Source: Cyanobacteria bacterium P01_A01_bin.123
Lineage (GTDB): Bacteria; Cyanobacteriota; Cyanobacteriia; Phormidesmidales; Phormidesmidaceae
Length of the DNA: 64,000 nucleotides
Assembly: GCA_039815185.1 (NCBI GenBank)
Contig: JBCBZT010000022.1
Span: forward strand, 1-64,000
Direction: 5' to 3'
The notes beneath the pieces were generated by a model that worked only from the letters and a program-made list of their open reading frames with translations, was not told where the DNA came from and searched no databases. Below are positions 1 through 47,086 of this stretch, piece after piece. The position numbers and the translations under genes were made by a program. Position 1 is the first letter of the stretch. Each line of letters starts with the position of its first letter.

Positions 1-885
1 CATTGGCGTACCATCCATGGTGGATTCAGTCATCGTTTTCGACTGTATTGCACCCGTTTGGCTTTCCACTGTTTGACCAGAGATGCCAACGCCTTGGACA
101 CTCACAGGCTCATTGCGCACCACTCGCTCGCCATTGTCATCAGCATTCTTCTCCAATGCCCGATCGGCATTAATCGGCGTGCCATTCACATCCGGCTTCA
201 ACGCCATCTGGCTTTGCTGCACCACATGGGTGGCTTCATGGCCCAACAGCTTCGGGTCATTGGCCCCCGATGACTGCACCACAATGTCATTCTTCATCGT
301 GTAGCCGTGGGCCTGAATGCTCTGAGTCGCCGCATCATCCACATGCACCCGCGCCTGCTGCACCTCGGGATAACCCGACTGCACAAAGTTGTCGCTCACC
401 TGCTTCGGCAACGGACGCCCACTGCCTTGGGGGGTCAACTCAACCGCCTCATCACCACCTGCACCCCCTTTCGGAGCCTTTTGAACTGCCGCTTCATCCG
501 CCATCACGTCGCGTTGGACGGCGGGTTTCCCACTCTGAGGCATCCGCCCAAAGAAATCATGACGGGCTGCCGAACGCCGCAAGTCACCGTCCATCGACCC
601 AGTGGGTTGCGCCTGCTCCGCCGGAAACATCGGGTGTCGCTGGACAGCACTACCCGATGGATAGACCGGCCCACTGCCAACAAGATTGTCAAGCGTGTAG
701 AGTGGCTTGCTTGCTTGCTTGTGGCGTACCTCTATGCTGGGACCTGGCTGAGAACTATCCACTGAAAAAGAATTGTCGGCCTCATCGGTCTCCAGATCTG
801 GCGAGTTGAACAGACTGGTTTGCACTGGCGGCACGGGTCGTTGTTGCTCCTGTTCGTAGGCGCGCTGCTTCCGCTGATAGACCAT
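1..885 (-). CDS. DUF4157 (eCIS core domain) polymorphic effector E1, partial (runs off the window start)
   Basis: Not in the ORF track; translated by hand from ATG 885. Open to position 1: MVYQRKQRAYEQEQQRPVPPVQTSLFNSPDLETDE...ARVHVDDAATQSIQAHGYTMKNDIVVQSSGANDPKLLGHEATHVVQQ. Same leader and start context (AAAATCCATGGT) as the paralogs. Confidence 0.9.
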   Translation of the reverse strand, partial: MVYQRKQRAYEQEQQRPVPPVQTSLFNSPDLETDEADNSFSVDSSQPGPSIEVRHKQASKPLYTLDNLVGSGPVYPSGSAVQRHPMFPAEQAQPTGSMDGDLRRSAARHDFFGRMPQSGKPAVQRDVMADEAAVQKAPKGGAGGDEAVELTPQGSGRPLPKQVSDNFVQSGYPEVQQARVHVDDAATQSIQAHGYTMKNDIVVQSSGANDPKLLGHEATHVVQQSQMALKPDVNGTPINADRALEKNADDNGERVVRNEPVSVQGVGISGQTVESQTGAIQSKTMTESTMDGTPM

Positions 886-1387
886 GGATTTTTGCCTTGC
901 TTACAAGTGGGGGGCCGCTAGGGATCACCTAAAAAAAAATTTCCAAAAATTTTTGGAAAAAATATTGGGTCACGCGAACATCCCCGTGCCTCATATATTT
1001 TCTGGTCATTCAAATGACGATGAAATTCTTGAGTAATCCCTAGTCTTTCTAGGGTCTAGCATCCCCAGCCTTTATGGCAATCCCCTTTTCGTATGATTTT
1101 GGGCCCCTTGCCCCTTTACAAGCTGTTACATTTGCAGGCGAGATCCCTTAACGCCTGTCGATCCACTTCATTTAAGTTTGTGGGTTCTCAAACGTAGCTG
1201 AAACGGATTATGGCTGAGTGTCGTTAGCGTTTCTTGGATTATGCGTCGTCATGCATCTTACAAGATCGGGCGATCGCACTGCTGTTGAAAAAGAGAACCT
1301 GAAAATAGCGGCATAACAGTGGCGATCGCTAACTTTCCCCCCTAGAAATTATTCTCTAATACGTTTGTTCAAAGATGTACATTCCCA

Positions 1388-46700: not shown

Positions 46701-47086
46701 CGTTGAGCAGGTTGGCCGGGGACGGGCTGGCCGGCATTCGGTTGGTTGATGACATCGACGACTTGGGATGCAACCTGATCGGCTTCTTGCTCATATTTAT
46801 CGCCTGCTGGCCCCACGTTCAGCTTTGCCTGCACCAGCGGTGAACTTGGCTGTCGCTGCACCGCATGCGTCGTAGCCGGCACCGGACTGCCAAAATTGTA
46901 GAATGGCTTGTCGGCTTGCTGCCAGCGCATTTCAAGGGTGGGAGCTGGCTTAGAACTATCCACGGAAAAAGAATTGTCGGCCTCATCTGTTTCCAGATCT
47001 GGCGAGGCGAACAGATTGTTTTGCGGCGTGTTTATCGGCAGCTGCTCCCGCTGCTCGTGGGTGCGCTTTTTCCGTTCATAGACCAT
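43709..47086 (-). CDS. DUF4157 polymorphic effector E5 (1125 aa) with a Lys-rich helical body and a hydrophobic hairpin
   Basis: Leader MVYERKKR; LIAHELTHVVQQ; hydrophobic VLLTLTLICSAISSLAPVTAPIMGPIAAFLGTVTYWLGI. Confidence 0.88.
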   Translation of the reverse strand: MVYERKKRTHEQREQLPINTPQNNLFASPDLETDEADNSFSVDSSKPAPTLEMRWQQADKPFYNFGSPVPATTHAVQRQPSSPLVQAKLNVGPAGDKYEQEADQVASQVVDVINQPNAGQPVPGQPAQRKVDTQPGGENGVQRMEDDEDIQMKPTGSQVGLAGGPVPTTTATEIQRARGGGKALEPYLQRTMGQAMGADFSSVKVHTDVQADRLNQTIQAKAFTTGSDVFFRQGEYNPGMRSGQELIAHELTHVVQQTDQSIQRQSNHLVQRTIYNEASETSDVKDGLKYAEVLQELKKRGVKETPKLQKLILKYLKSHEEISVQDLIEEFETGKRAAQDKFKSEQKKQKKPPLEKSAPKEVNVFYTEKEEKRVPVKEVIAKLRKAAIPDKIISGIFYKYEVHDSNHQSCTLNHLINTEGPKKWKKYKANKAQNLENPYTHLPEKERTKAFLDDDEYWAMQRKLDFFKDTGLHDDDAITAVVENYSPKEVEDLRESRRRQGLSPEEREKEDFDKRQIKKIEEYRTGDKFVAKDKTKKKELQKKHGSFRKAFKDKIKTINTNAQIAEGSIEQANNYIQGDASINAFFSQQFKKASSRKGSKGGITLADVNAHASKVYSKKFKAEVMPDGKLDGQKLNAYKDHSLYIARQSDKRVRETAADRLILEMYFNQVEKLAESKDDKKNKKEDIASIYKYAKSRAYDVNKRLEAQKKERSKLEDEGRISTTFSRGLQATDYAIRGGIVKVLTGGLLAVRKNRAKTGWVSEKDYNLDLETGLAEIEYFSDRKKKYNIRTPLDQIKDILKEFNAKWSSRKGSGINKWTTFFSALSLGLEAGKKFIGMIKSVLLTLTLICSAISSLAPVTAPIMGPIAAFLGTVTYWLGITQAGISALRIVLDGLAQLANNNPALFAELQGETRKSALNTGTELASLGGQVGLDFGTEAITNQDYGNLDAKTNPVKTLENKVELNQGPPLSLDQKIGKYGLQSTSVIKDGALAGINAGGTAIGSLDNNDMKFTQTVNKNRRIGKQKQGQTKATPEEMRFIKQSQRTTMNKAKKLGAKLVPSVSKLRQKPPKTELDSKASNKVPKDDLENMDRISDATDNTRKFAGSLIDGLNELKSLKEAKKNKD

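Follow-up and report, generated by a model that had tools for sequence, protein, structure and literature searches.

The first 64,000 nucleotides (nt) of contig JBCBZT010000022.1 (C9) in the 8.09-Mb genome of Cyanobacteria bacterium P01_A01_bin.123 (G000), hereafter the window (G000:C9:1-64000), encompass a contractile injection system (CIS), denoted CIS-1, and five putative cargo genes that share an N-terminal leader of about 37 amino acids (aa), leader A. The genome carries three CISs, four Pvc15-like ATPases and predicted cargo belonging to distinct leader classes, and across genomes the leader class appears to follow the ATPase clade, which supports the published idea of ATPase-specific loading, with physical linkage between leader and ATPase genes as a confound. 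Judged from sequence comparison, the genes are very probably CIS cargo and the leader is likely to be a loading signal. As the explanation of the whole, we favor an expanded CIS-1 cargo family with leader-keyed loading, which we regard as probable; that individual ATPases sort the cargo by its leader is a proposal to which we give slightly less than an even chance.

All five genes lie on the minus strand and are referred to here by their start coordinates. The gene at 1..885, truncated by the contig end, retains leader A (775-885) and a divergent-type DUF4157 domain (208-414). The four complete genes are located at 1388..3919 (843 aa; leader 3809-3919; divergent-type DUF4157 3098-3304; final VQR 2927-2935; C-terminal domain, or tip, 1388-2926), 6112..8763 (883 aa; leader 8656-8763; DUF4157 7945-8151; final MQR 7774-7782, followed by a small helical domain and an ADP-ribosyltransferase (ART) at about 6814-7143), 39640..42345 (901 aa; leader 42235-42345; canonical DUF4157 41389-41619; final IQR 41335-41343; exoenzyme-type ART 40402-40857), and 43709..47086 (1125 aa; leader 46976-47086; canonical DUF4157 46307-46537; VQR 46271-46279; helical tip that includes a hydrophobic stretch (about 44462-44587) and one extra MQR). 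The HExxH motif is present in the DUF4157 domain of every one, and PF13699 (eCIS_core) scores above the Pfam cut-off in 5/5, so that the five minus-strand reading frames, the leader pattern and the domain assignment made in an earlier, sequence-only reading of this DNA all stand, as does its identification of the machine in the window as a CIS. The last residues of the 1..885 gene overlap the starts of open reading frames (ORFs) on C51 and C110, both ART-tipped, and on C110 this ORF is followed by the start of another leader gene; thus, a tandem array probably broke the assembly, and the pieces were left unjoined. Several other family copies also stop at contig edges.

A leader-A profile run against the whole genome matched 19 times, on 11 contigs; the start is intact in 17 of these genes, and two contain stops; four weak matches (E 0.003-0.045) were treated as chance. 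DUF4157 is expanded as well, with 28 matches in this genome compared to at most 9 in any of 40 relatives. The ratio of non-synonymous to synonymous change (ω) across codons 1-37 was 0.33 (bootstrap 0.22-0.49), indicating purifying selection on leader A, with values of 0.20 and 0.28 in two leader blocks, 0.46 between the blocks, 0.54 in codons 38-60 and 0.12 in the DUF4157 core, all derived from pairwise counts in which the pairs are non-independent. The two DUF4157 clades, split with 100/100 support, both include genes with leader A, and in Acaryochloris and Moorea proteins the divergent DUF4157 type is preceded by other N-termini. Between subfamilies, DNA homology frequently stops near nt 111-118 (codon 37-39), and 6112 and a gene on C113 share 90% DNA identity from -174 to +111. 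Leader A, as far as these alignments tell, persists while the DUF4157 type, the spacer and the tip are exchanged. On C28 (7013-7660, plus strand), leader A is directly fused to a 39640-type tip (86% DNA identity) of which just the distal part is left, with neither DUF4157 nor the ART core. A frameshifted leader-A gene (C108:28169-32646) and a stop-interrupted leader-B gene (C99:65588-67453) point to turnover of the arsenal.

The complement of CIS-1 includes the sheath, tube, baseplate and Pvc15-like ATPase on C9 and a spike encoded off this contig, on C47, where it is the ortholog (76%) of the spike in the syntenic locus of another genome of the family, G065. The second system, CIS-2, is split between C15 and C14, with its spike on C43, and the third resides on C96. 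Contamination as the source of the extra CISs was considered and rejected: C9, C14, C15 and C95 agree with the genome in HIP1 (highly iterated palindrome) sites, GC content and tetranucleotides (r 0.99); C96 is more deviant in the same comparison (r 0.91). Cargo adjoining the ATPase on C95 and the baseplate on C14 carries a different leader, leader B, with 8 matches in the genome. The aligned sequences number 17 for leader A and 6 for leader B; the two profiles do not score each other's leaders, and no intermediates between A and B were seen. One leader-B protein (C82:162031-163335, minus strand) has a QAKL..EQEAD motif, an IQR and a kinase-like tip and lacks DUF4157. A stand-alone pair of Pvc16 and ATPase genes on C97 (35884-40813, minus strand) is accompanied by a 169-aa protein consisting of DUF4157 only, and in L118, a related ATPase stands with a similar short protein.

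We compared leaders and ATPases across 172 genomes of the same family and 400 genomes of the class. The N-terminal part of the Pvc15-like ATPase matched in 79/172 family genomes, with C9-type ATPases only in G012 (59%) and G065 (58%) and all others at 47% or less. The C95 query matched in 68/172, with C95-type ATPases only in G008 and G023 (68%) and the others at 46% or less. Among the family genomes, the search for leader B picked out G008 and G023 and no others, and the leader-A profile identified G012. In G065, two cargo genes behind the C9-type ATPase keep both blocks of a diverged leader A (16.5 and 9.3 bits, compared with 4.2 or less for B and other leaders). The search of the class genomes for leader A matched only G341, from another family, and this genome, picked by its leader alone, turned out to contain a syntenic system with a C9-type ATPase (60%) and an adjoining sheath (89%). 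As the sequence-only reading had anticipated, then, leader A co-occurs with the CIS: outside this genome it was seen only where the same CIS and ATPase clade exist, and no leader without an eCIS (extracellular CIS) was found in the family or class genomes; because the profile misses diverged leaders, including those of G065, such absences are weak. In the ATPase tree, the C9 and C95 clades are each supported at 100 (quick mode, SH-aLRT only, with G065 and G341 not in the tree). An ATPase fragment from G002 (78% in the conserved AAA part), considered as a potential counter-example, fell outside the C9 clade, in a weakly supported placement, and its cargo has a cysteine-motif leader. Many non-cyanobacterial cargo N-termini (L047-L126) share the motif LQRxCxCG..C..C next to related ATPases, possibly a further leader class. 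Two metagenome scans confirmed no relatives.

Each gene is a mosaic of a promoter region with a 37-codon leader, a disordered spacer with xQR motifs, one of two DUF4157 types, a linker ending in xQR, and an imported tip. Under the mechanism that we propose, extrapolating from experiments on the AlgoCIS and PVC systems, the Pvc15-like ATPase would engage the disordered N-terminus and thread the unfolded cargo into the tube, with the basic block and the S-L-F-x-S-acidic block of leader A serving as the putative recognition key of the C9 ATPase. Leader-A cargo would then enter CIS-1 and leader-B cargo CIS-2; the final xQR would probably be read at the protein level, by cleavage or binding, and new tips would be acquired by recombination in or just after DUF4157. 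In its fullest form, this is an orthogonal address code: every Pvc15-like ATPase would recognize a two-block leader of its own, the products of about 19 scattered genes tagged A and of 8 tagged B would end up in different particles, and the payload would be released at the xQR; we advance this version tentatively, as falling somewhat short of an even chance. A predicted complex of the C9 ATPase with the leader, based on an alignment, scored 0.01, which gave no answer and was not used as evidence.

Several observations weigh against leader-keyed sorting. Because the leader genes lie beside the ATPase gene in G065, G341, G008 and G023, joint inheritance alone predicts their co-occurrence, and there are only about five informative outside genomes, of which G008 and G023 represent one genus. 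The ω of the leader is moderate, in addition to coming from non-independent pairs; the cargo on C118 fits neither leader class; and leader A is missing from the large DUF4157 protein of CIS-1 (59524..64000, plus strand, only the start being in the window), a 2,426-aa protein with two DUF4157 domains that is probably tape-measure-like. The region of about 250 nt upstream of the leader, homologous among leader-A genes (886..1164, 3920-4201, 8764-9019, 42346-42609 and 47087-47364, minus strand), was duplicated together with it, which leaves room for a promoter-cassette explanation; a regulatory motif common to the cargo promoters and the CIS operons was looked for and not found. Furthermore, eCIS signals are described, in the text available, as mutation-tolerant and unconserved (PMC11297309). 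The linkage, the homologous upstream region and this tolerance would be compatible with a generic loading signal, disordered and with a basic start, where loading is promiscuous and the classes reflect the descent of CIS loci that each bring their own cargo promoter and 5' end. We consider this unlikely, although a serious contender: leader DNA is more conserved (mean identity 77%) than the upstream 150 nt (60%; 53% when shuffled), non-synonymous change is suppressed in the two blocks, and these blocks are kept in G065, in G341 and in copies on 10 other contigs, without A/B intermediates.

The sheath and the spike show the same split as the leader class, so that the ATPase is not singled out by the correlation. 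The leader might accordingly be read by another system-specific part. Candidates are Pvc16, a protein of the tube or the spike, and a chaperone of the YbjN-like kind, YbjN-like genes being present within the locus; DUF4157 would dock the cargo on the spike as in Streptomyces, where binding of a DUF4157 protein to components of the spike was examined (PMC13277306, on the portion available). However, the B-type ATPase sits apart from its structural locus and yet is immediately followed by leader-B genes in G000, G008 and G023, and in the available account of AlgoCIS, DUF4157 is dispensable and the ATPase essential (10.64898/2026.05.27.728243); on balance, we find this reading improbable. Leader-keyed loading, in turn, is compatible with another possibility, that the particles act within the producer, where they would bring about its death or differentiation, and not as a weapon outside the cell. 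The sheath and baseplate match PDB 8BKY/9GTP far better than the Anabaena structure 7B5H (E 5e-118 vs 1.5e-55), we take 8BKY/9GTP to be an intracellular Streptomyces CIS, and no immunity genes were found. Against this stand the many diverse tips of foreign composition, suggestive of an arms race, and the actin cross-linking domain of P0005 and P0007, leader-A homologs from outside this genome, which points to eukaryotic targets such as grazers. Action inside the producer thus seems to us distinctly unlikely.

The tips differ sharply among the window genes. The four complete ones show no mutual BLASTP match at E<=1e-3, as the sequence-only reading had claimed in calling them unrelated, but they are shared with other genes genome-wide. 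Two of the four are predicted ARTs. That of 39640 is exoenzyme-type, with PF03496 above the cut-off; it is common to C18, C113 and C28. The ART of 6112 is scabin/NarE/TreX-like, with R-S-E motifs, and common to C112, C132 and C108. R-S-E motifs and family matches place the ART tips among the predicted mono-ART toxins. Other genomic copies carry ARTs and an M35 peptidase as tips. The tip of 1388 was modelled with confidence (pLDDT 88.5) as a beta-sandwich domain followed by a duplicated helical segment, and 33 of its 37 homologous proteins contain DUF4157; Foldseek gave no match at E<=0.001, and the best VIA Z score was 6.6, hemolysin and Ig-like folds showing a weak resemblance. The tip of 43709 belongs to a helical family with a hydrophobic stretch, DUF4157 being present in 12/17 scanned relatives; its fold search gave no match, and the ESM Atlas held no usable match for either of these tips. 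A helical segment of about 55 aa after the final xQR (about 7560-7750 in 6112) recurs on C71, in P0009/C18 and in P0012, and has less support or none elsewhere; the idea that a small helical domain generally follows the QR was considered and dropped, leave-one-out support with no shuffle reaching it being obtained for only 4/19 segments. Comparison across the family revealed the same tip on different N-terminal parts and the same N-terminal part with different tips, and the tips are accordingly modules from a pool shared among CIS cargo. A polymorphic toxin system, as proposed earlier, thus fits in the constant N-terminus and variable tips but not in its usual companions. Among the 15 genes with downstream sequence, a same-strand ORF of at least 200 aa follows within 100 nt in only two (43709 and one on C112), neither established as encoding immunity, and tblastn searches for orphan tip cassettes yielded only family members or members split between contigs. 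The ORF behind 43709, 50 nt downstream (42718..43659, minus strand), encodes 313 aa with a weakly YbjN-like C-terminal part (27% over 82 aa; E 0.04, under the cut-off), occurs once in the genome and is a candidate chaperone or immunity protein.

The tips were also described earlier as AT-rich and free of HIP1 sites, and this is correct: their GC content is 0.40-0.44, compared with 0.53-0.59 in the N-terminal parts, and their 7,446 nt contain 0 HIP1 sites where 8.3 would be expected (p=2.4e-4) at a genomic density of 1.12 sites per kb, a value in line with a cyanobacterium. The use of HIP1 as a junction marker fails, however, because the N-terminal parts are depleted too (1 vs 4.3 expected in the four window genes; across 11 genes of the family, 3 vs 11.8 expected, p=0.003). 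Low HIP1 density thus characterizes the family throughout, as young or foreign. A non-coding element of about 430 nt (39304-39469, 5310-5827 and 4192-4350 in the window; also C113:150650-151079) lies downstream of at least 8 leader-A genes and on about ten other contigs, and could provide right-hand homology for tip replacement.

The last xQR had been regarded as the point right after which the genes diverge and as a recombination junction for tip swaps. This holds for one pair: 1388 and 6112 keep 86% identity as far as 5 nt beyond the QR, and the GC content drops sharply there in both (the step is blurred in 39640 and 43709). In contrast, 24 of the 25 gene pairs with a DNA alignment across DUF4157 lose homology 27-73 nt before the QR, and the QR codons vary synonymously, which together argue that the final xQR is not a DNA site. 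The breakpoints being mostly upstream, the same xQR preceding the same tip domain in distant bacteria, and exchange occurring inside tips and after the leader as well, a DNA-level recombination site is largely refuted, and we regard it as scarcely credible.

The data support instead a protein-level boundary motif, common to DUF4157 cargo, where the folded tip begins. The density of xQR per 1,000 aa is 18.5 in the N-terminal parts, 0.4 in the tips and 1.0 in the background, and an xQR follows HExxH in 24/41 unrelated DUF4157 ORFs long enough to test, vs 1/41 in a control window. Homologs of the 1388 tip have xQR at the equivalent start in 23/37 cases, several others show xQM or xQL by eye, the Q column is at least 90% conserved, and the modelled 1388 fold begins at the first residue past the xQR. 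Whether the protein is cut there is a separate matter. DUF4157 cleavage of cargo was proposed by Zhang 2012 (PMC3482391, as far as the accessible text goes), but the accessible parts of later reports describe Cgo1 activity as independent of the HExxH motif (PMC11297309) and the Pnf signal as not cleaved for loading (PMC11495950), and the leader-B protein on C82 retains its IQR without DUF4157. Cleavage at the xQR, though conceivable, therefore appears to us doubtful.

The remaining window genes fill out the CIS-1 locus. On the minus strand are the baseplate module (27882..33207; profile matches to a CIS13-like gene, Tail_P2_I, baseplate J and gp25), the Pvc15-like AAA+ ATPase of CIS-1 (48102..50090), which we propose recognizes leader A, a Pvc16-like protein (50101..51432; PF14065) and a Receiver/LuxR-type regulator (51432..52154) that is syntenic in G065, G341 and CIS-2; the sheath and three tube genes (53576..57253), assigned from profile and structure-sequence matches, are on the plus strand. 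The CIS13-like assignment of the 27882 gene is weak (52 bits against CIS13_fam, cut-off 370), and neither it nor the 33325 gene matched a PDB sequence in a search bearing on the Anabaena Cis13 anchor and Cis19 crown. WD40 and Ig-like proteins that look membrane-anchored (22710-24959, minus; 33325-35862, plus) are kept in CIS-1, CIS-2 and G065 and might serve in anchoring or as fibres. The baseplate cluster contains a pair of Cache-domain sensor genes (25045-27800, minus), of which one has a HAMP match; no output-domain match was found, and the same pair occurs in the G065 locus. A methyltransferase-TPR gene (36283-37938, minus) stands behind leader-A cargo, with a similar gene after the leader-A gene of G341, and Uma2-family genes are found among the cargo genes (4415-5026, 38011-38625 and 47433-48101).

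Much of this design is already known; the comparisons that follow are with the text available for each source. The PVC-metallopeptidase toxins (PMC3482391, PMC8213781) combine the same constant N-terminal HExxH domain with variable toxin C-termini, a CIS with an AAA+ ATPase and, usually, no immunity gene; the present family differs in its conserved leader under selection, two DUF4157 types under one leader, 28 DUF4157 matches in a single genome and several coexisting leader classes. The closest relatives in architecture, AlgoCIS Cgo1/Cgo2 with Alg15 (10.64898/2026.05.27.728243), share the order of disordered N-terminal domain (NTD), DUF4157 and variable C-terminal domain, with the ATPase in the locus and NTDs alike within but not between systems. 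There, the NTD and the ATPase are required and DUF4157 is dispensable, system-specific NTDs were noted for three cargo pairs, and this PROCIS preprint hypothesizes a specific match between every loading sequence and its AAA+ protein; it had two cargos and one ATPase, whereas in the genome analyzed here three CISs and four ATPases coexist with two or more well-populated leader classes. PVC signal peptides likewise comprise an N-terminal signal with sequence groups and Pvc15-dependent loading (PMC9054023, PMC11495950), although PVC cargo lacks DUF4157 and the CIS described here is of another lineage. Cyanobacterial DUF4157 cargo and large predicted arsenals are represented by Alr3311/Alr3312 of the Anabaena thylakoid-anchored CIS (PMC8894136) and by Moorena with 18 predicted toxins (PMC11297309), but the present sheath is closer to 8BKY than to 7B5H, and the accessible parts of those reports do not describe leader classes tied to ATPase clades. 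In the literature searched, with supplements and subscription papers outside its scope, we found no report of the xQR motif or of coexisting leader classes tracking ATPase clades. What is new, on these comparisons, is the predicted coexistence, in one genome, of three CISs, four Pvc15-like ATPases and several distinct classes of leader, and the comparative support that it appears to lend to a cargo address code.

The sequence-only reading missed what we consider the most interesting part, namely the two further CISs and leader B. The xQR boundary would supply a general rule for delimiting effector domains, two unnamed tip families were defined here, and a leader profile would detect cargo without DUF4157 or distant from the operon, such as the C82 protein. 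On how CISs choose their cargo, Evans and Waterfield, in the text available, pose the question of 'PVC specificity', whether CISs are promiscuous or specific (PMC11495950); alignable leader families, mutable blocks and two paired ATPases in one background make it testable. If the proposed code is true, such tags may sort cargo between coexisting injection machines.

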